Below are positions 1-58,696 of a DNA stretch of 64,000 nt, piece by piece (positions within the stretch are counted from its first letter, which is position 1; every line of letters begins with the position of its first letter). Below the pieces are notes generated by a model. The model did no database searches, was not told the origin of the DNA, and worked only from the letters and a program-made list of their open reading frames with translations. This DNA is from Candidatus Campbellbacteria bacterium (GTDB lineage: Bacteria; Patescibacteriota; Minisyncoccia; Phycocordibacterales; EsbW-18). The translations under genes were made by a program, and so were the position numbers. The stretch lies in contig JANLIT010000002.1 in the NCBI GenBank assembly GCA_024653945.1, positions 11,940 through 75,939 of the forward strand, read 5' to 3'.

Positions 1-11
1 AGAAAACGAAA

Positions 12-45
12 GCGCCCCGCCGAGCACTTTGTGCTAGGCGGGGCA
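12..45. terminator. GC-rich hairpin gccccgcc..ggcggggc, member of a recurring terminator family (also near 50640, 58790, 31095, 41690)
   Basis: inverted repeat gcgccccgccgagcac/gtgctaggcggggc read directly. Confidence 0.4.
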
Positions 46-297
46 ATCGGTACTGCTTGAGGTCCAGGTATTTATGGGGTCAAGGTGCTCATGCAAGCCG
101 GACAGTATTTGTTGTTGCAGGGCCAACAAGGACAGTCTCTGCCGTCATGTGGCCTACCGCAGTTGTGCGGTTCTCGATGAGTGTCCTCGGGTTTCACTGT
201 GGACTCCAACTTCTCGGTGACGACGATTTTATTTTTCATAACAAAACCTCCTCAGGTTCAATGTCTGCGGGAAATATATCACACTCTCTTGAATACA

Positions 298-332
298 AAA
301 AACCACCATCGAGGTGGTTTTTTGTTTTTGTG
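298..332. terminator. bidirectional rho-independent terminator downstream of the tmRNA 3' end
   Basis: aaaaaccacc-atcga-ggtggttttttgttttt: stem flanked by A-run and T-run. Confidence 0.55.
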
Positions 333-386
333 GCGCCGCAAAATGCGGCATCCTACAAAATTATATTCGTCTGCGACTCATTAATT

Positions 387-760
387 TTGTGGAGATGGTG
401 GCGATGAAGCCACGTCCAATATGTGATGTCATACGAGTCTACGTAATCTAGCGTTGTCTTGAGGTCTTACACACTATCTTAAAGACAGGCGAAACGATAG
501 CGTGCCAGAACCGATTGGTGTTACGTATTCGTCGGAACATCCGAGTACGCTAGTTTGAATTGGTTTACACCCGCTAACACCTCTCAAACAAAGATGTCAG
601 AAGACGTCGCTTAGGCGTTAACGAAAGCGAAATCCGATACCGCGAGGTATGGACTTTTGACTGCAGATTGTGCAGGTATGTTTGTACTGTTTTAAGGAAG
701 TCAGCACACTTCCACCACGCACGTATAACAATCGTCACATTGTCGAAACGAGGCATCCCC
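387..760 (-). ncRNA. ssrA: tmRNA (SsrA), standard one-piece, ~370 nt
   Basis: Minus-strand 5' end GGGGATGCCTCGTTTCGACAATG matches the tmRNA 5' consensus GGGGnuG...GGAUUCGAC. 3' end ...GGACGTGGC-TTCATC-GCCAC-CATCTCC-A is a T-arm-like stem-loop followed by a 7-nt strand complementary (with G-U) to the 5' GGGGATG acceptor, then discriminator A. CCA is not encoded. Candidate tag ORF ..AVSDFAFVNA* around 611-645. Adjacent to smpB. Confidence 0.6.
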
Positions 761-871
761 CGACACGAAAGAAATAACAAAGCACAAATATCAAAGTTCA
801 AAAAATAGATGTTCTCCATTCTTTGGATTTTGAGTTTTGGATTTTGAACTTCCACCGCTTCGGTGGTGCCT

Positions 872-1321
872 CTAATATTCTCTTTTCAAAGTACGACGCA
901 TATCTTTTTGCGCTTCTTTCTTCTTCAGTGATTCACGCTTGTCTCCTTTTTTCTTCCCACGAACCAACGCGCAATCAACCTTTATCAATCCTTTCTTATT
1001 ATACATCGATAACGGTACTATTGTCAATCCCTTCTGTTTTTCGCCATCGGCCAATTCTCTGATTTCTTTCTTAGAAAGCAATAAACGGCGAGTTTTCTCG
1101 GGGTCGTAGTTTTCAGGCTGATTTTTTGGCTGATAGGGGCCAATGTGCATTTTCACCAAAAATGCTTCCCCTGCTCGCACGACAATATATGCTCCATCAA
1201 GCGAGCCATTACCTGCGCGTATTGATTTTACCTCGTATCCTTTGAGCTCAATACCCGCCTCAACGTGTTCAAGGACCTCAACGTCGCGGAGCACTTTTTT
1301 ATTTTGAATCAAGGACGCCAT
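872..1321 (-). CDS. smpB: SsrA-binding protein SmpB
   Basis: 149 aa; VKSIRAGNGSL..GAYIVVRAGEAFLV..GPYQPKN..DPEKTRRLLL.KKEI typical SmpB. Confidence 0.9.
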   Translation of the reverse strand: MASLIQNKKVLRDVEVLEHVEAGIELKGYEVKSIRAGNGSLDGAYIVVRAGEAFLVKMHIGPYQPKNQPENYDPEKTRRLLLSKKEIRELADGEKQKGLTIVPLSMYNKKGLIKVDCALVRGKKKGDKRESLKKKEAQKDMRRTLKREY

Positions 1322-1518
1322 ACACGTATCATACCACTACTGCCTGCCCCTTTAACAAAAAAGCCTCGCACGGCTTTCAAGTGCAGGGTTTTTTTGTTGT
1401 ATCCCAACCACGGTGGCGGGGTTACTTAGTTAATACTGATATATAGTCAAAATGTTACTTTCTGCTTACTACCTACTACTTTCTACTTTTGCTTCCTACT
1501 TACTACTTCTTACCATCC

Positions 1519-1917
1519 CTATCCCTTTGTGCCGTCTCTAGTGATTGAAAAGAGTTCATCAAAAATTTGTGAGGGAGGAAATGCCGCTTTAAAAATAAAT
1601 TTGTGCACGCCTAACTTTTTTGCTTCCGTCATGACCGCATCACCCGCCGTATTGGAAAGAATTGCAATCTCTGCGTTCGGTACTAGGTTCTCTTCACGAA
1701 TCACTTTCAACACATCCATGCCCGACATGCCCGGCATTGTAATATCAAGCGCAACAATATCTGGCACAAAGTCGTGTCCGCGAAGAATATCGAGTGCATC
1801 CTTTCCGTTCAGTGCGATACGCAAATTGAGACCCTCCTTTGCCGCACGTTTTTGGTACAACGACATGAGAAACTCATCATCATCAACCATGAGTACTTTG
1901 TGTGATGTCTGTATCAT
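1519..1917 (-). CDS. response-regulator receiver (CheY-like REC) single-domain protein
   Basis: VLMVDDDEF..D..LDITMPGMSGMDVLK..KLGVHKFIFK: acid pocket, phospho-acceptor Asp and conserved Lys. Confidence 0.8.
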   Translation of the reverse strand: MIQTSHKVLMVDDDEFLMSLYQKRAAKEGLNLRIALNGKDALDILRGHDFVPDIVALDITMPGMSGMDVLKVIREENLVPNAEIAILSNTAGDAVMTEAKKLGVHKFIFKAAFPPSQIFDELFSITRDGTKG

Positions 1918-1959
1918 ATGGAGAAAAGAGTTACTAATAATACATTTTCTCGTGCGTAG

Positions 1960-2352
1960 TTATTTGATGTGCGCAACAGAGAGCAGTTCGTCAAAAACCT
2001 GTGAGGGTAAGAGAGACGCTTTCATAATAAATTTTGAAACGTTCAGGTCTTGCATATCTTTTGCAAGGTCATTTTCATTGTTGTTGGAAAGAACAACGAT
2101 GCGCGCTTGTGGTACAAGTTTTTCTGCACGAATTGTTTTCAAGAGGTCCATACCGCTCATGCCCGCCATGGTTACATCAAGGGCAATAATATCAGGAACA
2201 AGTCCTTCGCGAAGTTGCGAGAGGGCCTCTTCACCACTGAATGCCGTAGAGAGTTCAACAGGATACCCCTCCGCCTTTTTTTGGTACAAGGACACGAGAA
2301 ACTGGTCGTCATCAACCATAAGAATCTTTTGTTTGTTTTGTGGCGTGTCCAT
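1960..2352 (-). CDS. response-regulator receiver (REC) single-domain protein, tandem paralog of 1519..1917
   Basis: ILMVDDDQF..LDVTMAGMSGMDLLK..NVSKFIMK; ~45% identical to its neighbour. Confidence 0.8.
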   Translation of the reverse strand: MDTPQNKQKILMVDDDQFLVSLYQKKAEGYPVELSTAFSGEEALSQLREGLVPDIIALDVTMAGMSGMDLLKTIRAEKLVPQARIVVLSNNNENDLAKDMQDLNVSKFIMKASLLPSQVFDELLSVAHIK

Positions 2353-2548
2353 ATCGTAAGGTCAACTATAGCAAAACCACAGGGGCACGCTATGGGTAAA
2401 AACCATTTTGGTGGACTACATAGAAATATTGTCTAAAGAGGAAAATGTGCTATAGTAACAGCGTAAAACACATTGCCCAAAACTATATAACAACCTACGC
2501 CTTCATTAACATCTTATTGCTTACTACTTTATTCTTACTTCTACCCTC

Positions 2549-3070
2549 TTGAGTACCCCAAACAGAAACCGCGTCCGCATGAATGCATTAATCACCGCAA
2601 CCGAAATGCGTGTGATGGGTCCCGATGGAGAAAATCTCGGTGTACTTCCACGTGAAGAAGCTCTCGCCAAAGCGCGCGAGTTCGGACTTGATCTTGTTGA
2701 AATTTCTCCAAACGCAACTCCTCCTGTGGTAAAGATTATCGAATACGGAAAATACTTGTACGAACAAGCAAAGAAAGCTCGTGAAAACAAGGCGAAGTCG
2801 CACCAAACCGAGACCAAGAGCGTGCAGGTCAAAATCGGTACCTCCGAGCACAGCATGGGTATCAAAGCCAAACAAGCATCACAGTGGCTTGCTGAAGGTC
2901 ACCGCGTGCGTTTTGAGCTCTATTTACAAGGCCGTGCTAAGTACTTGGACAAAACCTTCCTCAAAGAGCGTATGGAACGTTTCCTCAAGTTCATCACCGT
3001 GGACTTCAAAATTGCCGAACCTGTCAAACAGGCACCTAAGGGTATGAGTATGGTGCTTGAGAAAAAATAA
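2549..3070 (+). CDS. infC: translation initiation factor IF-3
   Basis: INEEI-like N-terminus (MNALITATEMRVMGPDGENLGVLPREEALAKAREFGLDLVEISPNATPPVVKI), C-terminal domain SVQVKIGTSEHSMGIK. Track start is TTG at 2549; an in-frame ATG lies at 2579. A non-AUG start is classic for infC. Confidence 0.9.
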   Translation: MSTPNRNRVRMNALITATEMRVMGPDGENLGVLPREEALAKAREFGLDLVEISPNATPPVVKIIEYGKYLYEQAKKARENKAKSHQTETKSVQVKIGTSEHSMGIKAKQASQWLAEGHRVRFELYLQGRAKYLDKTFLKERMERFLKFITVDFKIAEPVKQAPKGMSMVLEKK

Positions 3071-3340: not shown

Positions 3341-3526
3341 ATGAAGACCAACAAAGCATATTCAAAACGACTTCGCATCACGAAAAACGGTAAGGTTATC
3401 GGCCGAAAAGCTGGTGGCAACCACTACAATGCTAAGGAGTCCCGAAGCACACAACTCGCACGCAAGCGTTCACGAATCATTTCACTTACACCAAAAATCC
3501 GCACGCGTTATTTGCCGTCAAAGTAG
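3341..3526 (+). CDS. rpmI: 50S ribosomal protein L35
   Basis: 61 aa basic protein MKTNKAYSKRLRITKNGKV..RKAGGNHYNAK between infC and rplT (conserved infC-rpmI-rplT order). Confidence 0.85.
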   Translation: MKTNKAYSKRLRITKNGKVIGRKAGGNHYNAKESRSTQLARKRSRIISLTPKIRTRYLPSK

Positions 3527-22276: not shown

Positions 22277-25057
22277 TCAAATTTTATACATTGCGTTGAT
22301 TCCAGCTTCAAGTTCTTCGCGAGGACGGCCAAATTTTGCATAGGAAAGTTCCTTCAAGGTATCTACTTTCGTCATATCAGGTTTTTCTGGATACATGGTT
22401 GCGATTGAAAACGGTCGCTCTGTTTTATTTCGAACAAGCATCTTAAGGAATCCGTTGAAGTTGTCTACGTTCATCAAATCGTTTGCGGTAAACACGGGAG
22501 CGAACTGTTTTTCCAAAAATTCAGCATCATCAGAACCAACACGGAAGGAGCACATGGAACCGACGTTGCCAAAGACCGCGTCTTTAATTTTTTCATCCAA
22601 CTGTTTAATGTACTGATGAAAAATACTGAGTCCCAATTTGTATTTTCGTGCTTCCGAGAGAATGGTGGCGATTGAATTTGTGGTGATATTTTGAAATTCA
22701 TCAATGTAGAGATAAAAATTTGGAACATCTCCTTTGCCAACTGCATCAACGCGAGACAGTGCGGCCATGAGAATTTTTCCCACAATAATAAGTCCGACGA
22801 GGTTTGCGTTGATATCACCAAGTCGCCCCTTTGAGAGGTTTACTAAAAGAATTTTACGCTTGTCCATAATATCTCTGAAGTTAAATGCCGAATGTTTCTG
22901 CATCACAATAGGACGCATGATGTCATTGGCAAGAAAGATGTCAAATTTGCTCGTGATGTACGGAACCATGTTTGCAAGAGATGCTTCCCCACCCGCTTTT
23001 TCGGCAACTTCACGCCAAAATTGAACAACCACAGGATTTTTACATCTTGAGAGTTTCAAATCACGAAATGCTTTCTCTGACATGACACGCGACACATCAA
23101 ACAGTGTGTTGCCTGTATCAGGATCTTCAATCACGAGCATTGTCGCATTGCGGAAGTACTGCTCAAACATTGGTCCCATACTCTCAGGCACTCCTCCGTA
23201 CAATTTCTGGAAGATAGAAAAGAGTTCATTCACCACAAACGTCTTCTGTTCAGGGAACGCGGGGTCATATTCCAACATATTGAGTCCCATTGGACGTGCC
23301 GTGTACGCTGGGTCAAAATAAATAACGTCATCAAAACGCTCTTGAGGAACCGATGCGAGTACTTCCATAAGGTCGGTCCCGTGAGGGTCAATCATGCACA
23401 CACCTTCTCCATTCTTAATGTCCTGTATAATCATGTTTTTCAAAAGCGTCGTCTTTCCTGTTCCTGTCTGACCAATACAATAGAAGTGGCGCAACCGATC
23501 TCCCTCCGTCATGTAAATTGGCGTCTTGGTGTTACCGTACACGTTTTCGCCAAGCAACAAACCTTCAGTTGGCAAATCAACTGGTGCAGGAGAACCTCCT
23601 GCTTTTGCACGTTTGAGTTCACGCGATGAGTCACTTCCCACAGCAGGAACGTGGGCGAATGTTGCGAGCTCACGAAGATTCATGGGCAATATCTCATCTG
23701 TGGAGAAAAGTCGGAATGCAAATTCTTTTACCAATCCAGTGAGTTTTGTTTTAGTGAAGCGTGTAAACTTCAATGCGTTTCCACGCGGATCTTCAAGCTG
23801 GCTGAATGTTGCCTCAAGTTCAGACAAAATTGCATCTGAGCGCACTTGTGATGTTGATGACGCAAGGAGACGAATGTTTGTTTCAACGATGGTTTGGCTA
23901 AATTTTTGTTTGAGCTGTTCAATGGTGATGTCGTCCACTGGTCGCTCGCGCTCTTTTTCTTTTTTCTTGTCTTCTTTCTCTTTTGACGCAAAAAAGAATG
24001 AGTGCACCTCTTTACCAACTGACACGACAACCGATTTCTCTGCAAGCGCTTCCTTCATCGGCGTACCTTTCGCCATTTTTTCTATCACTTTTCGAATTTT
24101 GTCCGCATAATCGGTTTCTGCCGGTCGAATCAACACCTGCAATGCAGCGCCTTCACCAACGCGCAACAACTTTCCAAACGCCGACAAAAGAATCGTCAGT
24201 GGGTCGTAATCAAAATGTTCATGTGTTTTGAGAGGAAGCATATACGGCCGTGCGTATGCAGCAATAGAGCCGGCGGTTTTACCTTCTGGAAAGAAAATAT
24301 TGTAATCATTTTTGCGGTCGGCGACACGCGCTTGTGGAAAAATAGAGAGCAACTGTTTCTCAAAAATATCTTTCTTTTCCGTTGGTACCGACATATAGAG
24401 CGTGACGTGTTCAAGGTGCGCTTCAACAGCAAGTTCAATAGAGAAGTACTTTTTCTTTGAACCTTTTTCTGACGCAACTGAGAGTGCGCCGGCGTAGAGT
24501 TGTTCCATTGATGACAGGAGCTCTTTAAGCGGGCGTTGGTGCTCCTTTGCATCCTTGGCATCAAACGGGAGCGTTACCTCTAGGAGCGTCATGTGGAGCG
24601 CCTTCCAGAGTGGTTCGCCTTCTTTGATACCTTTTGTTATATATCCTTCTTTTAAGTATTCGGATAAAAAACGATGAAAGTCGTCTTCAACGTGCGGATT
24701 ATCCATTTTTTCAACAATAGACAGCGCATTACGTATTCCCTTTTCCTGCATTACCGAGAGAAGTTCAGCAATAATGGTATCGTGCTCCTCTGGGGCAAGG
24801 TCCAAAACAACGGCATCAATTTCTGGCTTCAGCATCTCGTGACCTTTCGCAAGCACTGTTTCTGGCGCATGCCCAGCATATGTGTGTATGACTTCTTTTT
24901 CTGGCGTTGGATGAGAGAGCTCGTGTGTTCCTGCATCTACATTTTTTTCAAGTTGTTTGAGTCGTTCACGCAAAAAATTCACCTCTTCATTGGGTGTGGT
25001 GAACTTTTTTTCAGGTGTCAAAGAGAACGTCTCCATATGCACTTTAGTATAGCGCAT
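22277..25057 (-). CDS. VirD4/TrwB/TraD-type coupling-protein-like P-loop ATPase with ~500-aa soluble N-terminal region (no TM helices)
   Basis: Walker A CIGQTGTGKTTLL followed ~25 aa later by MIDPHGTD (the GxTGxGKS...DPxG arrangement of type IV coupling proteins); Walker B FYLYIDEFQN. Confidence 0.65.
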   Translation of the reverse strand: MRYTKVHMETFSLTPEKKFTTPNEEVNFLRERLKQLEKNVDAGTHELSHPTPEKEVIHTYAGHAPETVLAKGHEMLKPEIDAVVLDLAPEEHDTIIAELLSVMQEKGIRNALSIVEKMDNPHVEDDFHRFLSEYLKEGYITKGIKEGEPLWKALHMTLLEVTLPFDAKDAKEHQRPLKELLSSMEQLYAGALSVASEKGSKKKYFSIELAVEAHLEHVTLYMSVPTEKKDIFEKQLLSIFPQARVADRKNDYNIFFPEGKTAGSIAAYARPYMLPLKTHEHFDYDPLTILLSAFGKLLRVGEGAALQVLIRPAETDYADKIRKVIEKMAKGTPMKEALAEKSVVVSVGKEVHSFFFASKEKEDKKKEKERERPVDDITIEQLKQKFSQTIVETNIRLLASSTSQVRSDAILSELEATFSQLEDPRGNALKFTRFTKTKLTGLVKEFAFRLFSTDEILPMNLRELATFAHVPAVGSDSSRELKRAKAGGSPAPVDLPTEGLLLGENVYGNTKTPIYMTEGDRLRHFYCIGQTGTGKTTLLKNMIIQDIKNGEGVCMIDPHGTDLMEVLASVPQERFDDVIYFDPAYTARPMGLNMLEYDPAFPEQKTFVVNELFSIFQKLYGGVPESMGPMFEQYFRNATMLVIEDPDTGNTLFDVSRVMSEKAFRDLKLSRCKNPVVVQFWREVAEKAGGEASLANMVPYITSKFDIFLANDIMRPIVMQKHSAFNFRDIMDKRKILLVNLSKGRLGDINANLVGLIIVGKILMAALSRVDAVGKGDVPNFYLYIDEFQNITTNSIATILSEARKYKLGLSIFHQYIKQLDEKIKDAVFGNVGSMCSFRVGSDDAEFLEKQFAPVFTANDLMNVDNFNGFLKMLVRNKTERPFSIATMYPEKPDMTKVDTLKELSYAKFGRPREELEAGINAMYKI

Positions 25058-25067
25058 CTATACCAAC

Positions 25068-28000
25068 CTATCCTACATTCTCACGTTGGATAACGACAGC
25101 AAGTGCACGCCTAATGAAAGCCTCTGTAGTTTCTTCCCCCCTAAAGATTCCTCCAATAGGACGCAGGCCTGAGTCTCGTGAAAGCATCATGAGGTAATGC
25201 TGGAGTTTTTTGGCTGGAGTGTCATCGGGAAATTGCATTTTCTCAAGAACCTTACGAGCATCCATTGTTTTCCACTGTGTCCACTCTGACCATTCTTCTT
25301 TGAGCGTTCCAAATATCGCACGCATATCACGATTCATCTCATGTTCGATATGTTCAGGACTCAATAAGTGTTCTAGAGAAAGGTTATCTGATACTAAAGG
25401 TCCAAGCCCTTCCCGTTCTTCGAACGGAAGATTTTCTATAGTGCCCGTAGTGTCCTCGGGTAAGGTTGCCGTTTCAGTATATTCTGTAGATGTATCATTC
25501 ACCCCTTGCTCCACGCTTCCTGCGAGGTCGCTAGCGACGACATCTTCTGGTATCTCTGTAGCAACGTCTTCGGGAACATTATTTGGAACAATTCCTTCCT
25601 CAAACCCTGAGGAGGGTATTTTTTCTATCCCATGTGTGCTATCCGGATGGAGCACGTCACTGTAATTAATACTTGAAGTATTTGAAAATTCAAAATGTGC
25701 CACTTCCCCATTTCCTGCAGGAACATACTGTAAAATGTCCCCTTCATGAACAAGGTTGAGTTCTGCAATTGGTATCTCGCGACCATCAGGAAGATGCGCC
25801 ACCGAATGAGACCACGCGTCAGCAAATCCTTTTTTATCAAGATGAAATCTTTCTCCAAGTTCTTTTGCTGAGTTCCAAATATTTCCTCCACGTTCAATAT
25901 CAATTAGTTCTGGGTGTGGAGCAGATTCAAATACACCTGATTCAACAGCGTCGGCATGGTGAGCTGACTTAATAATTTCTGCAATGTTTGCAGTACTTGC
26001 AGCATCTTTTGAATAGACAATTTCGTCTTGTGGACCAATACCATGGAACGTCCCACGGGACGGAATCATTGCAATATCATTTTCTGAAAGTTCTGTATTT
26101 CCCGATACTGATTTAAACATTTCTGGTGCCCGCTTTGGCCAACCAAACATATCTGGCGCAAAATGTCGCAGTACGTAACCAGCCATACTAAAGCCCGCAC
26201 CCATAATGGCACCGTGAACCATTTGATCTCGGAGAAATTTCTTTTGTGAGTCTTTAATTTTTTCCTCATGCAGACCGGTGAGTGCGTCAAGTCGTTGTTC
26301 TAGTTCAGCTTTGTGATTTGCATCACCAACACCCTCATGTGAAGCAACAAATGTAGAGGCGTGGCTCATTGCTTGAACAATATCTAGTTGATTTTTGAGA
26401 CGGTCATTAAACGTACCAAAATCCATTTTGCTGGTATATATTTTATTCTCGGTGTAGTAAATGCGCTCCTCAAGCTGTGAAAATAGTGTCTCCTTTTTGG
26501 CTTCATCGGTTTCATTTTCTATACGTTGTATGAGATGATTAATTTTCTTTTTTGATTCGTCTACATGAATAATATTTTCCGCAGTTGTACTTGTATCATC
26601 AACACCTCGGCGTGCACCTGCTTGTTGCTCTTTTAGTGTTTTTTGCGCGCGTCGTCGAGCCATAAAACCACCCATACCAGCGGCGGCAAGAGGAAGACCG
26701 AGTGTTCCGAGTAACGCACCCGTCATCGCACGAGTAGCAAAACCAGCACCAAAATAAATACCACGTTCAGTTACAATATCCTTGAGAGAACGTACCCACA
26801 CTTTTTCATCGGTGATTTTTTGTATTTGCGCCTCTGCTTCAGGATGTGTTGAAAATAGCTGGTCCATACGTACGCGAGCATATATGGTGTTCATCTGCTC
26901 GGCTAATGTCACCCTATCAGAACCGTTTTTTGCTTCGAGAAGTAGGAGCGCATTGGCGCGTGCTTGGATGAATTGTTTTTCAGCTTCCTCATATTTTTTT
27001 CGTTCTGAACGAGACGCGGTCTCACGTGCCCATTCTGTTGGAATATTTGTAAACACATGGGCTGCTGTATTGAACGAGCGCAGTGTTTCTTCTTCTGCTT
27101 CATTTTCCGCTTGTATTCCGTTTGTGTAGAGAACTTCAAGAGTGCCTTCTTTGTCAAAAACAGCGTCAAGACCAACTTCACGTGTACCAGTTACTAATTT
27201 TTCAATAACATCCCTGTATTCACCTATACCCGCTTTTTGTAGATCCTGCGCTGTTGCTTTTTCAAGTTTTGCAGATTGGTATCCTTTTGTAATACCACGC
27301 CAAAATCGTCCAAAAAATCCTGCCTTTTTATTTTCTTCTGCTCCATGCGCTGCAGCATCCTCCTTAATCTTACCGAGTATAATTTGTTGCAGGTTTTCTT
27401 GTACGAGTGCTTTTTGCCCGATGGTAAGTTCACTGTACCCAGGAACTGTTTCAAGATCTTCTGCCCTCATTCCTGTAAATATTTTTTCAAATTTCTCGTT
27501 TATCTGTGTCAATCTAGCCACAGATGGAAATTTTTCTGGCTTTTCTTCAATTGGTAGATTTGCAGGAGCTTCTGCGATAACCTTCACAGCATCGTGCGCA
27601 CCCTCAATTTGTTCTTTCGTTATACCAACCTCTACCCCCGTCGTAAGAATACTCAAAAGATGTCTTTTTCTTGCTCTCTTTTCCTTCAATTCTTCCGAGG
27701 AAAGTTTTTTTGTACGAAAATCTGTTTCAATTCCTTCTAATTCGTCGGTTAATTTCAAAAACTCATCTTTTGTCTTACGAGAAAGCGTCTCATCATTTTC
27801 TATTCCTATACGCCGACTGTCCAAATACTCCCGTTTCTCTTTTGGCAAAACTATCGTTTCTCCTACCGTTGGTTCTATTTTTGTCTCATCAAAATGCTGG
27901 AGAAAACTTTTATGTATCCTTTCAAACTTATCTCCTTCCTCTTCTGGTATCACGGCAGTATTAACTGTTTCGGGTACACTAACCGCGGTGGGAACTTCTT

Positions 28001-28487
28001 CGGATACGGCTTCTTCTTGAGTAGAAACTGGTGTCACTGTTTCTGGACTAACGGGAACGCTCTCTTTTTCCAGAGAGACGGTGAGTATCCCCGCATTGAT
28101 ACTAATTTTCTTAATTGGAGCATTAAATTTTTTCTCAAGATATTTTACGATACCCGGAATAAGATCGGGTAGATATTTAGTAAGCTTTCTTGTAACCAGT
28201 GCTCGTTTAACCATCCCTGCCCGAACTTTAAAATCACCCGCTTTTAGACGCTGACCATCACTTTCTAGTGATCCATCAACACCAAATTCACCCGCAAGAT
28301 CGTGAGTAAGCTCTGCAGAAATTGAGATTTTGTTTCCATCTCCACCAACCTTTAGTCCACGCACCTCTGCAAGCCCCTGCAGAAGAGTTCGAATCTCATT
28401 CTCCAGTTCTGGGGTAGTCAAAGATTCTTCTTTTAAAGTTTTTTCTTTTGCAGGTTCTTGAGGCAACTGTGGTCCTTCAAATGTCAT
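25068..28487 (-). CDS. 1139-aa protein with central membrane segment(s) and extended coiled-coil/charged regions; unknown function
   Basis: hydrophobic GIYFGAGFATRAMTGALLGTLGLPLAAAGMGGFM near the middle; 11-nt gap to the coupling-protein-like gene. Confidence 0.55.
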   Translation of the reverse strand: MTFEGPQLPQEPAKEKTLKEESLTTPELENEIRTLLQGLAEVRGLKVGGDGNKISISAELTHDLAGEFGVDGSLESDGQRLKAGDFKVRAGMVKRALVTRKLTKYLPDLIPGIVKYLEKKFNAPIKKISINAGILTVSLEKESVPVSPETVTPVSTQEEAVSEEVPTAVSVPETVNTAVIPEEEGDKFERIHKSFLQHFDETKIEPTVGETIVLPKEKREYLDSRRIGIENDETLSRKTKDEFLKLTDELEGIETDFRTKKLSSEELKEKRARKRHLLSILTTGVEVGITKEQIEGAHDAVKVIAEAPANLPIEEKPEKFPSVARLTQINEKFEKIFTGMRAEDLETVPGYSELTIGQKALVQENLQQIILGKIKEDAAAHGAEENKKAGFFGRFWRGITKGYQSAKLEKATAQDLQKAGIGEYRDVIEKLVTGTREVGLDAVFDKEGTLEVLYTNGIQAENEAEEETLRSFNTAAHVFTNIPTEWARETASRSERKKYEEAEKQFIQARANALLLLEAKNGSDRVTLAEQMNTIYARVRMDQLFSTHPEAEAQIQKITDEKVWVRSLKDIVTERGIYFGAGFATRAMTGALLGTLGLPLAAAGMGGFMARRRAQKTLKEQQAGARRGVDDTSTTAENIIHVDESKKKINHLIQRIENETDEAKKETLFSQLEERIYYTENKIYTSKMDFGTFNDRLKNQLDIVQAMSHASTFVASHEGVGDANHKAELEQRLDALTGLHEEKIKDSQKKFLRDQMVHGAIMGAGFSMAGYVLRHFAPDMFGWPKRAPEMFKSVSGNTELSENDIAMIPSRGTFHGIGPQDEIVYSKDAASTANIAEIIKSAHHADAVESGVFESAPHPELIDIERGGNIWNSAKELGERFHLDKKGFADAWSHSVAHLPDGREIPIAELNLVHEGDILQYVPAGNGEVAHFEFSNTSSINYSDVLHPDSTHGIEKIPSSGFEEGIVPNNVPEDVATEIPEDVVASDLAGSVEQGVNDTSTEYTETATLPEDTTGTIENLPFEEREGLGPLVSDNLSLEHLLSPEHIEHEMNRDMRAIFGTLKEEWSEWTQWKTMDARKVLEKMQFPDDTPAKKLQHYLMMLSRDSGLRPIGGIFRGEETTEAFIRRALAVVIQRENVG

Positions 28488-55042: not shown

Positions 55043-58000
55043 TTATCTTTCTTCAACATCTGGATCATCAAGCTCTGAATTGTCGAGTGGGTCTGCACAT
55101 CCTGGATCTACTGGGCCACCCGCTCCATCAAAATCCTTTAGCCCATCGCCATCATTATCAAATGTGTCATTACACTGTGCAATAGGGAGATCTCGCTCAT
55201 CGTTGTCTTCAGTAGTTGTACATCCGGGGTCAGCTGGGTAATCAATGAGGCCGTCGGGTGTACTTTCATTGTCCTCACCGTCACGACACTGTGGAATAGG
55301 TGCATCATATTCAGTCGGATCACATAATGCTCCGATACATGATGTTGGACACAGTGCCGGATTGTCACTTTGGCACGAACCACATCCCGGGTCATTATCA
55401 TCTGGAGTTAAAAGATTTCCATCTGCACCTGCAAAATCAATAAATGCATCCCCGTCATCGTTGTTTATCTCATCAAAACATTCCGCGTAGTGCACATCGA
55501 CAGTGACCGAGTCAGAGATTTCAAGACCGTTATCAATATTGGTGCAGGTAAGTGTAAACACTGTATTGTCGGCCATAATCACACCGCTTGCCTCGCTACC
55601 GTCATCCGTTTTTGCACCAATCCAGTTTGGTACACCTCCAGTGCCTTCGCAGTTTTGTACATTTGTCGTCTCCCACGTAAGGTTTACTGGGACACCGATG
55701 AGAACATCAACTGGAACGGAAACATTATTCACATACAAATTTACGGTGCCCGAGGATGCATCTGGTGTGTAGGTAAGATTGAAGGTAATTGAACCACCTA
55801 AAGATGAAATTGTTTGTGAATGAGTTGGTAACACAAGATTTTTTGCACTCCTCACCACAAGAGTATATCCGGGTTTGTCTGCTGAAATTGTATAGTCATA
55901 CCCTCCTAGAATATCTCCGTATGATATAGGACCGATTATTTGGCCTGGTTCGTGTATCAAAACGGGACCAGTGATGTCCCACGCTGTTGGTATGTTTGAC
56001 CTTACGATAATATTTCCAACCACATCCACAGAACATTGAGCAGTTAATGAGTTGCTTGTAACGGTCACGGTTTTTGGTGTTCCTTCGGTTATGTATGTTG
56101 TTACACAAGAAGAACCAAATGAATTACATGCGGTTCCGCCACCCACACCACCATTGCTGGTATCCCATGTGTATGTTCCGTTACCTCCGCCTGCAGTGAG
56201 AGTGACGGGAACTTCAACACCTATGGGTTGGGTTGCGGGTGAACATGTTGGACCCACGTTCACCGTCACACTTGCGGGTGCACTCGTTCCTCCTGGGCCA
56301 GAACAGGTAATTGTAAATGTTGTTGCGCTGGTAAGTGCTATTGATGTGTCTGAACCCGCTGGTGTGTTGGCAGGAATAACAAAACCTGACGTTCCTCCAG
56401 CGGTCACCGAACACGATGTTGCATTTGTTGAACTCCAGTTAAGTGTTGCGGTGGTGTTATAAGTAATAGGATTTGCTGTCGCGGTGAGTGTTGCTGTTGG
56501 TGTGATATTCACAAGAACACTATCCGTTGCGCTTCCCCCTGCGTTTGCACAGGTGATTGTGTATGTCCGTACGGTCGCGCCGTTTGCAATACTTGTCTGC
56601 GCATACGTACCATTGGGAGAGTATGTTTTTGAACCAGTCCACCCCGTAACCGCCGGTGATGCTGATGCCGTACATGACGTTGCATTTCCAGAAACTATCC
56701 ATTGCAAATCAACGTTTGCTCCTCCGGCAGGAAGTGACAATGGACCTTCACCATATGAACTACCGCCTGACTGTTTTCCTTGAAGATTAACGGTTGGTGC
56801 TGGGAGTGCAGTAATCGTCAGATTAAATGTATCCGAACGAACAGTTGCTCCTGATGTACCAGTAACGGTAATGGGGTAGGTACCTGCAGTAGCAGTTCCA
56901 CTATTAATCGTCAATATAGGCGCGGGCGTACACGTCAGGTTTGGTGTACAAGGTGTTGAAGAATATGAAGCAGATGCACCACTTGGAATTCCTGATGACG
57001 TGAGCGCAACAGAGGCTGCAGTTCCTGCTGTTTTTGTAACGGTGATTGTGTTGGTGACCGATAGTCCTTGCACGACACTTTTATCGCCTGCGTCTGCCAC
57101 CGTGAAGTTGAAGGCTGGTGCAGTCACGATAACTCGGCAGGATTCAGATTCATTAGTCCAAGGAGTGGGGAGCTCTGACCAAGGTTCATTTGAGCCTTTT
57201 CTTACCCTAACATCATAGGTCCCTTGAGTTGAAAACGTACGGGTACATGATTGGGTAGAACACGCCGTTGTTCCACCGTCCATATCCCATTGGTATGTTG
57301 TGCCGATACCCCCAGAGGCCGTAAGTGTGACACTGCTTCCAGCTGTGATTGATGAAGAAAGTGGTGAACAGGATGCAATACATCGAGGTACGGAACCCGT
57401 CTTTGCGGCGTACAAATAATCGGTATAATCAGGAGGATTTGGAGCTCCATCTGACACAAGGTCAATTTGATACGCACAGTTCACCGGAGAACCCGACGAG
57501 GGATATGGTACCGAGAAAGTGTGAGAGTAGCCCGCTCCTGTTCCTGATGTGTCCGGTAGCATTGTAAACGAAGTGATACTTTTCCGGATTTGTGTGGAAA
57601 GATAATCGGAAGCACCCCACGCCCTGAACACATACCAAGACACCAGACTCACAGGGAACGAACAACGGGGAGATGTGTTCTTCACCGTGATTGACGCCTG
57701 ACCAGTGGCTGGGTTGGTTGTTATCTTATCGCTATCGGGATAGGAAAAGGATTGGCCATCTACACCTTTAATATAGCTATCAGGATTACAGGCAATAGTT
57801 GTCGGCGTACACGTTTTGTCTCCACCAGACATAGTAACCGAACCACCCACACAGTTAGAGGAAGCTGTCCATCCGCCCCAATCTGTCCCATCCCCAAAAT
57901 AACCAGTTAAAGATACAACCGTGTTGGCATTATACGTTTCTGTACAATTTGTGTGGCCCGAAACATTACCACAATCAATACCGTTACCACCAGAAACTCC

Positions 58001-58696
58001 CACAGGCGCTGTAATGTACAAAGTGCCGTACCCTATTGAATTTGGATTAATGGTGAGTGTGTACTCGGTAACGGCGACGGGAGTAAATGTTGCAGTAACT
58101 GTACAATTGGCCATAATTGGCCCCGTGGTAAAGGTTGTTCCATTAAGTGTTCCTCCACAACCCGAGGCCGATGCGGTGTAATTAGCATTTGGAGTAACGG
58201 TGAAAGTTGTGCTACCACCGGAACTAACAGATCTCGAAGCTGGAGAAATAGTACCCTGTGCTCCAGATGTAGGTGACGTTCTTCCCAACACGGTGTACGA
58301 AGCGCCAGTAACGGTGACAGTAACATCGCGGGATAATGAGTATGAATCATTTTCGCATGTAATCGTAAATGTTGTTGTGGTTGTGAGTGCGGTTGATGCA
58401 TCAGAGCCGTCTACTGGTAATTGTGGTCCAAAACCAGGACCACTACCAGAACAAATATATGCGTGACTAGAGTTCCAAGTAAGTGTAGTGGTTTGACCAG
58501 AACCAACTGAGGTTGGACTTGCAGAGAACGACGTTATGGCAACAGGTTGATCACAGGGATACTCCTCTGGTGGACACTGTTCTATAGCAAGAACTGGCTG
58601 CGGACTGATGAGCGACCACGCGACAAAGAGCGCACACCCAACGAGCATGCCAGCTGAAATATTTTTTAAAAGACGTGTGTGTTTTAGAAAAAACAT
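55043..58696 (-). CDS. giant (1217 aa) secreted Thr/Ser/Gly-rich beta-sandwich repeat protein with three C-terminal Cys-bracketed Asp-rich DxDxDG-type (calcium-binding-like) repeats
   Basis: N-terminal signal/anchor MFFLKHTRLLKNISAGMLVGCALFVAWSLISP; C-terminal repeats such as QCNDTFDNDGDGLKDFDGAGGPVDPGCADPLDNSELDDPDVEER*. Confidence 0.8.
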   Translation of the reverse strand: MFFLKHTRLLKNISAGMLVGCALFVAWSLISPQPVLAIEQCPPEEYPCDQPVAITSFSASPTSVGSGQTTTLTWNSSHAYICSGSGPGFGPQLPVDGSDASTALTTTTTFTITCENDSYSLSRDVTVTVTGASYTVLGRTSPTSGAQGTISPASRSVSSGGSTTFTVTPNANYTASASGCGGTLNGTTFTTGPIMANCTVTATFTPVAVTEYTLTINPNSIGYGTLYITAPVGVSGGNGIDCGNVSGHTNCTETYNANTVVSLTGYFGDGTDWGGWTASSNCVGGSVTMSGGDKTCTPTTIACNPDSYIKGVDGQSFSYPDSDKITTNPATGQASITVKNTSPRCSFPVSLVSWYVFRAWGASDYLSTQIRKSITSFTMLPDTSGTGAGYSHTFSVPYPSSGSPVNCAYQIDLVSDGAPNPPDYTDYLYAAKTGSVPRCIASCSPLSSSITAGSSVTLTASGGIGTTYQWDMDGGTTACSTQSCTRTFSTQGTYDVRVRKGSNEPWSELPTPWTNESESCRVIVTAPAFNFTVADAGDKSVVQGLSVTNTITVTKTAGTAASVALTSSGIPSGASASYSSTPCTPNLTCTPAPILTINSGTATAGTYPITVTGTSGATVRSDTFNLTITALPAPTVNLQGKQSGGSSYGEGPLSLPAGGANVDLQWIVSGNATSCTASASPAVTGWTGSKTYSPNGTYAQTSIANGATVRTYTITCANAGGSATDSVLVNITPTATLTATANPITYNTTATLNWSSTNATSCSVTAGGTSGFVIPANTPAGSDTSIALTSATTFTITCSGPGGTSAPASVTVNVGPTCSPATQPIGVEVPVTLTAGGGNGTYTWDTSNGGVGGGTACNSFGSSCVTTYITEGTPKTVTVTSNSLTAQCSVDVVGNIIVRSNIPTAWDITGPVLIHEPGQIIGPISYGDILGGYDYTISADKPGYTLVVRSAKNLVLPTHSQTISSLGGSITFNLTYTPDASSGTVNLYVNNVSVPVDVLIGVPVNLTWETTNVQNCEGTGGVPNWIGAKTDDGSEASGVIMADNTVFTLTCTNIDNGLEISDSVTVDVHYAECFDEINNDDGDAFIDFAGADGNLLTPDDNDPGCGSCQSDNPALCPTSCIGALCDPTEYDAPIPQCRDGEDNESTPDGLIDYPADPGCTTTEDNDERDLPIAQCNDTFDNDGDGLKDFDGAGGPVDPGCADPLDNSELDDPDVEER

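Follow-up and report, generated by a model that had tools for sequence, protein, structure and literature searches.

The question raised by this locus is whether a bacterial genome in which the default tmRNA finders report nothing carries a functional ssrA gene all the same, and which peptide such a gene would add to stalled proteins. We analysed a stretch of 64,000 nucleotides (the window) together with the corresponding loci of related genomes. Judging from the sequences, we put the probability at roughly 94% that the minus strand at 387..760 encodes a functional one-piece tmRNA, and that the gene is chromosomal, belongs to a Patescibacteria (CPR) bacterium and is transcribed just after smpB. 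The gene is ordinary in kind, as it shows all the architectural features of tmRNA and a score above the family threshold. Its departures are limited to conserved details, i.e. the T-loop length, the D-loop GG, the length and ending of the tag, and a CCA that is not encoded.

Identity and ends of the gene

The tmRNA gene and its partner gene occupy the following positions.

387..760, minus strand: tmRNA (ssrA) gene; full RF00023 model match, ARAGORN -ps90 call (760..389), MFE z = -4.2
760..390, minus strand: mature tmRNA before CCA addition; CAA at 389..387 occupies the CCA place
872..1321, minus strand: smpB, 149 aa; PF01668 E = 6.6e-48, profile positions 2-142 of 143

The RF00023 covariance model matches over model positions 1-374 with 79.2 bits (E = 4.6e-31, permissive filters), compared with a gathering score of 47. 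The original prediction had placed a tmRNA on the opposite (minus) strand at these coordinates, and had named a covariance-model search as the result that could overturn it; run with permissive filters, that search returned the same place and the same orientation. The RNA also folds better than its shuffled versions (MFE z = -4.2). The layout is collinear with the standard one-piece model, and the permuted two-piece form was not found (RF04321, 12.4 bits, E = 3.2). At 371 nt plus CCA, the tmRNA is similar in length to the standard one-piece form.

Both termini agree with the tmRNA consensus, as had been proposed from their letters. The 5' end reads GGGGAUGCCUCGUUUCGAC from window position 760 on the minus strand, and the 3' end on the same strand reads ..GGAC-GUGGC-UUCAUC-GCCAC-CAUCUCC-A-CAA, finishing at 387. 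It contains a T-arm-like hairpin (413..398) and the strand CAUCUCC (397..391), which pairs with the 5' GGGGAUG. The expected absence of an encoded CCA holds as well: A390 is followed by CAA.

The neighbouring gene is smpB, as predicted (Pfam SmpB, E = 6.6e-48). It lies 111 nt upstream of ssrA on the same strand and encodes a full-length SmpB domain with a basic C-terminal tail, and the smpB-ssrA tandem is also present in the relatives. The SmpB relatives in species-representative genomes are almost all from Patescibacteria/CPR MAGs (labelled Paceibacterota, Parcubacteria, Minisyncoccia or with generic names). The SmpB of one locus, L001, is 98% identical to that of the window, and the next-best ones in a large protein collection are 60-68% identical. 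We collected the contigs of twelve SmpB relatives and further loci from an SmpB search, giving 32 distinct tmRNAs, all located just downstream of smpB. The window clade as used below consists of the window and L001, L044, L046, L039-42, L037/38, L045 and L057 (SmpB 60-98% identical). The window also carries infC-rpmI-rplT and the genes for ribosomal protein L2, SecY, methionine aminopeptidase, EF-Tu and NusA; the presence of infC-rpmI-rplT, L2, SecY, EF-Tu and NusA indicates that this is chromosomal DNA.

Detection by default and permissive searches

The gene is missed by the default settings of both tools that had been suggested for checking it. ARAGORN made no tmRNA call at default in positions 1..3000 or in the full window, and Rfam in gathering mode with fast filters missed the tmRNA in a 3 kb stretch, in the 64 kb and in a 651-nt stretch around the gene. 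The suggested ARAGORN/Infernal check thus failed at these settings and succeeded with permissive ones. ARAGORN reports the gene at 94% of its default threshold or less, and at 90% it gives the same ends and the tag AQSAVKSPYLAVSDFAFVNA*.

In gathering mode Rfam found the copy in L001, which is 94% identical and scores 80.4 bits, and weaker relatives (77.2 bits) too; overall it detected eight of the eight clade relatives tested. All relatives in this comparison were taken with ssrA on the plus strand, while the window gene is on the minus strand. Two causes are conceivable for the miss: the window gene may fall marginally short at the HMM filter stage, or the tool may behave differently on the two strands.

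Secondary structure and charging signals

We assigned the structural elements from the RF00023 alignment and examined them in nine aligned tmRNAs that are 44-94% identical to that of the window. The Rfam alignment supplied the nested helices, to which we manually added the second stem of every pseudoknot.

754..760, minus strand: acceptor stem, 5' strand GGGGAUG; 7/7 pairs invariant in 9 sequences, including G3·U
742..753, minus strand: D-loop analogue CCUCGU, then conserved UUCGAC (RF00023 alignment)
714..744, minus strand: helix 2, 5' strand; helices 2-3 have 14 pairs with changes on both sides
683..713, minus strand: pseudoknot 1, GGAAG/CUUCC and UGUGCUG/CAGUACA; helices 4-5, both-side changes in 8/12 pairs
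604..633, minus strand: helix 5 (helix 6 of the covariation set)
553..603, minus strand: pseudoknot 2; helices 7-9
511..550, minus strand: pseudoknot 3; helices 10-11, both-side changes in 12/13 pairs
455..505, minus strand: pseudoknot 4; helices 12-13, both-side changes in 8/16 pairs
415..447, minus strand: helix 2, 3' strand
398..413, minus strand: T arm, 5-bp stem GUGGC/GCCAC and 6-nt loop UUCAUC (408..403)
390..397, minus strand: acceptor stem, 3' strand CAUCUCC (397..391), and discriminator A390

Across the nine tmRNAs, standard pairs fill 84.5% of the cells, versus 37-44.5% after a shift of the 3' partners by 1-3 columns. Changes on both sides occur in 50 of the 106 pairs, and none of 500 shuffles reached the observed values. 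Compensatory support was found for helix 2, helix 5, all four pseudoknots (PK1-PK4) and the T stem, so that all 14 helices are supported. In the T stem (helix 14), 3/5 pairs are changed on both sides in the relatives, and the loop begins with UUCA.

The acceptor stem GGGGAUG/CAUCUCC has 7 bp, and its third pair is a G·U wobble (G3·U368, where A371 corresponds to window position 390). A G·U wobble at the third pair of the acceptor stem marks alanine acceptors. Like the stem, the A discriminator does not vary among the nine aligned sequences. The G3·U pair and the A discriminator persist in the wider sample, where other positions of the acceptor stem vary. The CCA is not encoded in the window (A-CAA); three of the nine aligned clade sequences encode it. 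L039 and L041 are clade members with an encoded CCA.

Tag reading frame

The tag frame proposed from the letters, ending in ..AVSDFAFVNA*, is the one that evolution has kept.

611..673, minus strand: tag frame; resume codon GCA 673..671, 20 codons, stop codon UAA 613..611; located by the covariance model, ARAGORN and conservation

The tag encoded in the window is AQSAVKSPYLAVSDFAFVNA, and ARAGORN at 90% gives the same end as the tentative frame. For the resume codon, the covariance model and ARAGORN agree on one and the same GCA. The context of this codon, which the original prediction had asked to be inspected, is the expected one: GCA lies 9 nt past PK1, the AUA at -6..-4 is common to the window and the family consensus, and the end of the frame falls in helix 5, before PK2. 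The final three codons of the tag (GUU AAC GCC) lie in the loop of helix 5, and the 3' strand of this helix starts within the stop codon.

The peptide is conserved as A[NKQ]SA[VA][KQ]S[PQ][YF][FL][TA][AV][KRS]DFA[FY][AV][LN][AV]*, and its 20 residues are kept in relatives whose SmpB is only 60-67% identical. We counted the substitutions over eight 20-codon sequences. The codon pairs of the tag frame show 116 synonymous versus 152 non-synonymous differences; for the two remaining frames these counts are 19/238 and 30/233. The pairwise differences at codon positions 1/2/3 in the tag frame are 72/104/189. The frame of the original prediction is therefore the correct one, since the synonymous excess is found in that frame and not in the other two, and comparison of these sequences tells us that the tag peptide is under purifying selection.

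Alternatively, a real tmRNA could use a different resume codon or tag frame, e.g. the frame that ends at the UAA within GUUAAC and gives ..GIGFRFR*. The UUAA of the helix-5 loop does align with the stop-codon loop of the family consensus, and other frames had been named as possible at the outset. However, the alternative frames have almost no synonymous substitution (the 19/238 and 30/233 above) and give no conserved peptides, whereas the GCA frame starts with Ala, has 20 codons in all close relatives and ends with hydrophobic residues and Ala or Val; the agreement of the two programs on GCA also speaks against a different start. We consider another frame extremely improbable and retain the 20-codon GCA frame.

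The tags of the clade members are as follows.

L001: AKSAVQSPYFTVSDFAFVNA
L044: ANSAVKSQYFTVSDFAFVNA
L046: ANSAVKSPYFTARDFAFALV
L039-42: AKSAVQSPYFTARDFAFALA
L037/38/45: ANSAVKSPFFTAKDFAYALA
L057: ANSAAKSPYFTARDFAFALA

Most clade members have a tag ending in ..DFA[FY]ALA (mostly ..DFAFALA) or ..ALV. The window, L001 and L044, which come from independent assemblies, are the only three with the ending ..DFAFVNA. More distant relatives have tags of 28 codons (L047, L059 and L060) or 18 codons (L058). The most frequent length of tmRNA tags is 10 aa (PMC11915505). The alignment of tags indicates that VNA is a rare sub-clade variant, in which the Asn next to the last residue and the tag length are the unusual features. 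The term 'non-canonical' given to the tag earlier is thus right in comparison with the ..ALAA of E. coli and does not hold within the Patescibacteria, where just the penultimate Asn stands out.

VNA differs from ALA by several substitutions, which lie in the loop of helix 5. The out-of-frame UUAA of this loop had suggested an origin of ..DFAFVNA* from ..DFAFA* by a 1-nt deletion, which we rejected because the relatives equally have 20 codons. A metagenome scan with the back-translated DFAFVNA-stop matched nine times, each time in an unrelated coding sequence and never in a tmRNA.

The reduced tRNA-like domain

The tRNA-like domain of the window tmRNA differs from the family model at two positions of the elbow. 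The T-loop has 6 nt (UUCAUC), compared with 7 in the family model and in 20 of the 32 sampled tmRNAs, a share that is probably overstated as most of the distant relatives were sampled because ARAGORN found them. The 6-nt loop is present in all nine members of the window clade (as UUCAUC, UUCAAC or UUCAAA) and also in L021, L058 and L059. The GG of the D-loop in the family consensus (ucuGGaUUCGAC) is CG in the window (CUCGUUUCGAC) and CG or UG across the clade. It is absent in L058 too and is kept in L021 and L059. Since these two keep the GG despite a 6-nt T-loop, the two changes are associated and not strictly coupled.

The T-loop has been described as highly conserved (PMC1168896). A passage of PMC3968760, citing Barends 2002, reports that the contacts between D-loop and T-loop are necessary for SmpB binding. 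By the alignments, the deviation of the elbow is real but small, and what we see is a clade-specific reduced tRNA-like domain.

We edited the window gene in silico and recorded the highest ARAGORN threshold passed by each version.

Wild type: 94%
Canonical 7-nt T-loop: 98-99%
Restored GG: 98%
Canonical T-loop and restored GG: 100% (default)
GC-rich T stem: 100% (default)

The default ARAGORN miss can be attributed to the 6-nt T-loop together with the lost D-loop GG, because restoring both returns detection. The T-loop length as the sole cause was rejected; single-nt insertions or an added CCA gave no rescue. Chimeras with L037 show that more than one part of the gene limits its detection by ARAGORN.

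The same deviations could be taken as relaxed selection on a decaying ssrA pseudogene, of which the deviant T-loop, the lost D-loop GG, the missing CCA and the odd tag ending would be the marks. The sub-threshold scores of the default tools fit this, and ARAGORN labels the low-score match in relatives 'tmRNAp' (possible pseudogene). But the deviations are fixed across the whole clade in independent assemblies, every helix has been preserved through compensatory changes, purifying selection acts on the tag peptide, smpB is intact, and the covariance-model score is well above the family threshold. The compensatory support for every element and the unvarying acceptor stem argue against decay, and we give the pseudogene hardly any chance.

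With the gene taken as functional, we speculate that the clade has remodelled the tmRNA elbow and doubled the tag length, and that one sub-clade has switched its degradation signal from ..ALA to ..VNA. If these changes are functionally relevant, the recognition by SmpB, and by a T-loop modification enzyme, would have co-adapted, and the protease specificity would have shifted, possibly to that of FtsH. We hold this scenario as a whole to be doubtful at present, with the odds clearly against it. Members of the clade may also be systematically under-counted by default tmRNA finders.

Transcript ends and flanking elements

Two candidate transcription signals flank the gene.

295..325, minus strand: intrinsic terminator CCACC-UCGAU-GGUGG, then UUUUUUGU; the terminator scan reported the plus strand, and the hairpin is symmetric
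796..801, minus strand: candidate -35 element TTGAAC, 36-41 nt upstream of the mature 5' end; weak, with no good -10

The terminator at 325..295, about 65 nt past the mature 3' end, is the probable end of the ssrA transcript. A terminator directly follows ssrA in the relatives as well. In the window a further hairpin, GCCGC..GCGGC (349..335), lies between ssrA and the terminator.

The promoter scan found no sigma-70-type site between smpB and ssrA. TTGAAC or its variants are found at equal distance from the ssrA 5' end in the window, L001, L037 and L045 (TTGAGC and TTGAGT in L037 and L045). Transcription of ssrA by read-through from smpB is equally possible.

A hairpin CACCACCG-AAG-CGGUGG at 840-862 on the minus strand stands right after the smpB stop codon and has no U-tract. 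It is conserved in L001 and shows a compensatory change in L037 (CACCGCCG-AAA-CGGCGG). This smpB-ssrA hairpin may be a processing or attenuation signal.

Downstream of ssrA we observed a Cys-rich ORF of 55 aa (..CGRPHDGRDCPCWPCNNKYCPAC..) at 72-239 on the minus strand, followed by a strong GC hairpin terminator (GCCCCGCC..GGCGGGGC) at 14-44. Pfam gave no match for this ORF, and a comparison with the 86-aa ORF located after ssrA in L041 showed no similarity.

Genomic surroundings

The homology between the window and L001 (89% identity over smpB and ssrA) ends exactly at window position 387, the 3' end of ssrA, while L001 (2433-3436) and the more distant L046 stay collinear with each other downstream, up to ftsH. 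Such a break is what would be expected if the 3' end of ssrA were the attachment site of an integrated mobile element and its 3' part, or the whole gene, were borne by the element and not ancestral. tmRNA genes are well-known integration sites of islands (PMC11915505). Against this, no integrase was found in the 386 nt between ssrA and the window end, and an att-like repeat search gave one match only, so that the window has no second copy of the ssrA 3' end. The 3' domain of ssrA is also identical to that of L001 and L046, and the gene sits within the conserved smpB-ssrA tandem. An element-borne ssrA seems to us unlikely, though less so than either a pseudogene or a different tag frame, and we keep to an ancestral chromosomal gene. 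The homology break itself could stem from an insertion, or from a rearrangement, in the window's genome at this end of ssrA, which is a classic place for islands to integrate.

Just past the ssrA terminator, L001 (~3475-3492) and L046 (~2950-2964) carry a segment ACGUGGCGAUGAAGA that resembles an inverted T arm and is the reverse complement of CUUCAUCGCCAC. ARAGORN found no tRNA at these segments in the two loci. The segment could be the remnant of a recombination site.

The genes around smpB-ssrA show some recurrent arrangements. Two tandem genes for stand-alone response-regulator receivers are located upstream of smpB in the window (1519-1917 and 1960-2352, minus strand). The pair precedes smpB in L039, L040 and L046, and in L041 it is nearby with two other genes between. 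In L037, L038, L041, L042, L045, L046, L047, L057, L059 and L060, ftsH directly adjoins smpB-ssrA, either upstream in divergent orientation or downstream, which hints at a functional connection between the tag and FtsH. By homology with L046, ftsH is located downstream of ssrA in L001 too. In the window, a scan of 20 large ORFs gave no Clp, Lon or FtsH.

ARAGORN found no tRNA gene anywhere in the 64 kb or near the ssrA of the relatives, and no other Rfam family reached its gathering score in the 64 kb, despite the presence of much of the ribosomal-protein region. The large ORFs at 22277-28487 and 55043-58696 (minus strand) include proteins of 1139 aa and 1217 aa without a Pfam match. A 926-aa ORF of the same set has a weak match to VirD4/T4SS coupling proteins, and an 814-aa protein with a SpaA-like prealbumin-fold domain adjoins these ORFs. 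They may encode a cell-surface or DNA-uptake apparatus typical of CPR episymbionts.

Proposed route of trans-translation

On the basis of established tmRNA biology, we propose the following course for the product of this gene. The precursor would end at the terminator (325..295), and RNase P would cut at G760. The ~65-nt 3' trailer would be removed after A390, and the CCA-adding enzyme would supply CCA. The alanyl-tRNA synthetase would then charge the tmRNA via G3·U70 and the A discriminator. SmpB (872..1321) would bind the tRNA-like domain, and EF-Tu would deliver the complex to ribosomes stalled on broken mRNAs. Translation would resume at GCA 673..671, with release at UAA 613..611, so that Ala plus AQSAVKSPYLAVSDFAFVNA (20 residues) would be added to the stalled protein. 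The hydrophobic ..DFAFVNA end would mark this protein for an AAA+ protease.

FtsH is our best guess for the protease that recognizes the tag, with low confidence; it is favoured because ftsH adjoins smpB-ssrA in most of the relatives.

Comparison with known systems

tmRNA in Patescibacteria is already well documented, and nothing here changes the understanding of tmRNA. A tmRNA database of 2025 lists 5,275 tmRNA instances in 6,765 Patescibacteria genomes (supplement of PMC11915505). The same work counts 111 bacterial taxa for which the tools that selected the candidates, ARAGORN and BLASTN, missed the tmRNA of over half of the genomes. The genome studied here has a trans-translation system though default ARAGORN and the Rfam fast filters report none. 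This bears on claims that core functions are missing in reduced CPR genomes, and it calls for caution with default tmRNA annotation.

The window tmRNA shares with the SsrA of E. coli (tag ANDENYALAA) and RF00023 the acceptor stem with G3·U70, the A discriminator, the T arm and the SmpB partner. It also has the same stemless D-loop analogue with UUCGAC, the long helix 2, PK1, the resume codon GCA, helix 5 at the stop codon and PK2-4. Unlike the standard RF00023 form, it has a 6-nt T-loop, CG in the D-loop, 20 tag codons and no encoded CCA, and its tag ends in ..FVNA versus ..ALAA in E. coli SsrA. Its HMM-level similarity to RF00023 may be low enough to fail the Rfam fast filters. At two places that hardly vary elsewhere, the length of the T-loop and the GG of the D-loop, the clade offers natural variants with which SmpB binding could be probed; the natural exchange of ALA for VNA at the very end of its tag could serve to probe protease recognition.

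Other Patescibacteria have the same smpB-ssrA tandem, and their CCA is often not encoded. In the other Patescibacteria sampled, the tags are short and normally finish with Ala after an aromatic or aliphatic residue (..ALAYA, ..AFAFA, ..AYAYA). Outside the window clade, the sampled Patescibacteria mostly have tags of 9-15 codons, a 7-nt T-loop, the D-loop GG and default ARAGORN detection, whereas the window clade has a 20-codon tag of the form A.SAV.SPYF...DFAFALA and the reduced tRNA-like domain. All members of the clade share the architecture, a frame of 20 codons, a T-loop of 6 nt and a D-loop analogue with a single G.

The tags of the Mollicutes show some likeness to that of the window. Gur and Sauer are said to have reported in 2008 that the Mollicutes tags are long, end in ..YAFA and are degraded by Lon rather than ClpXP. 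The Mollicutes tags and the window tag, likened here by description, are both long, have an aromatic-rich C-terminal end and belong to reduced genomes, while the gene neighbourhood of the window clade points to FtsH, versus Lon in the Mollicutes.
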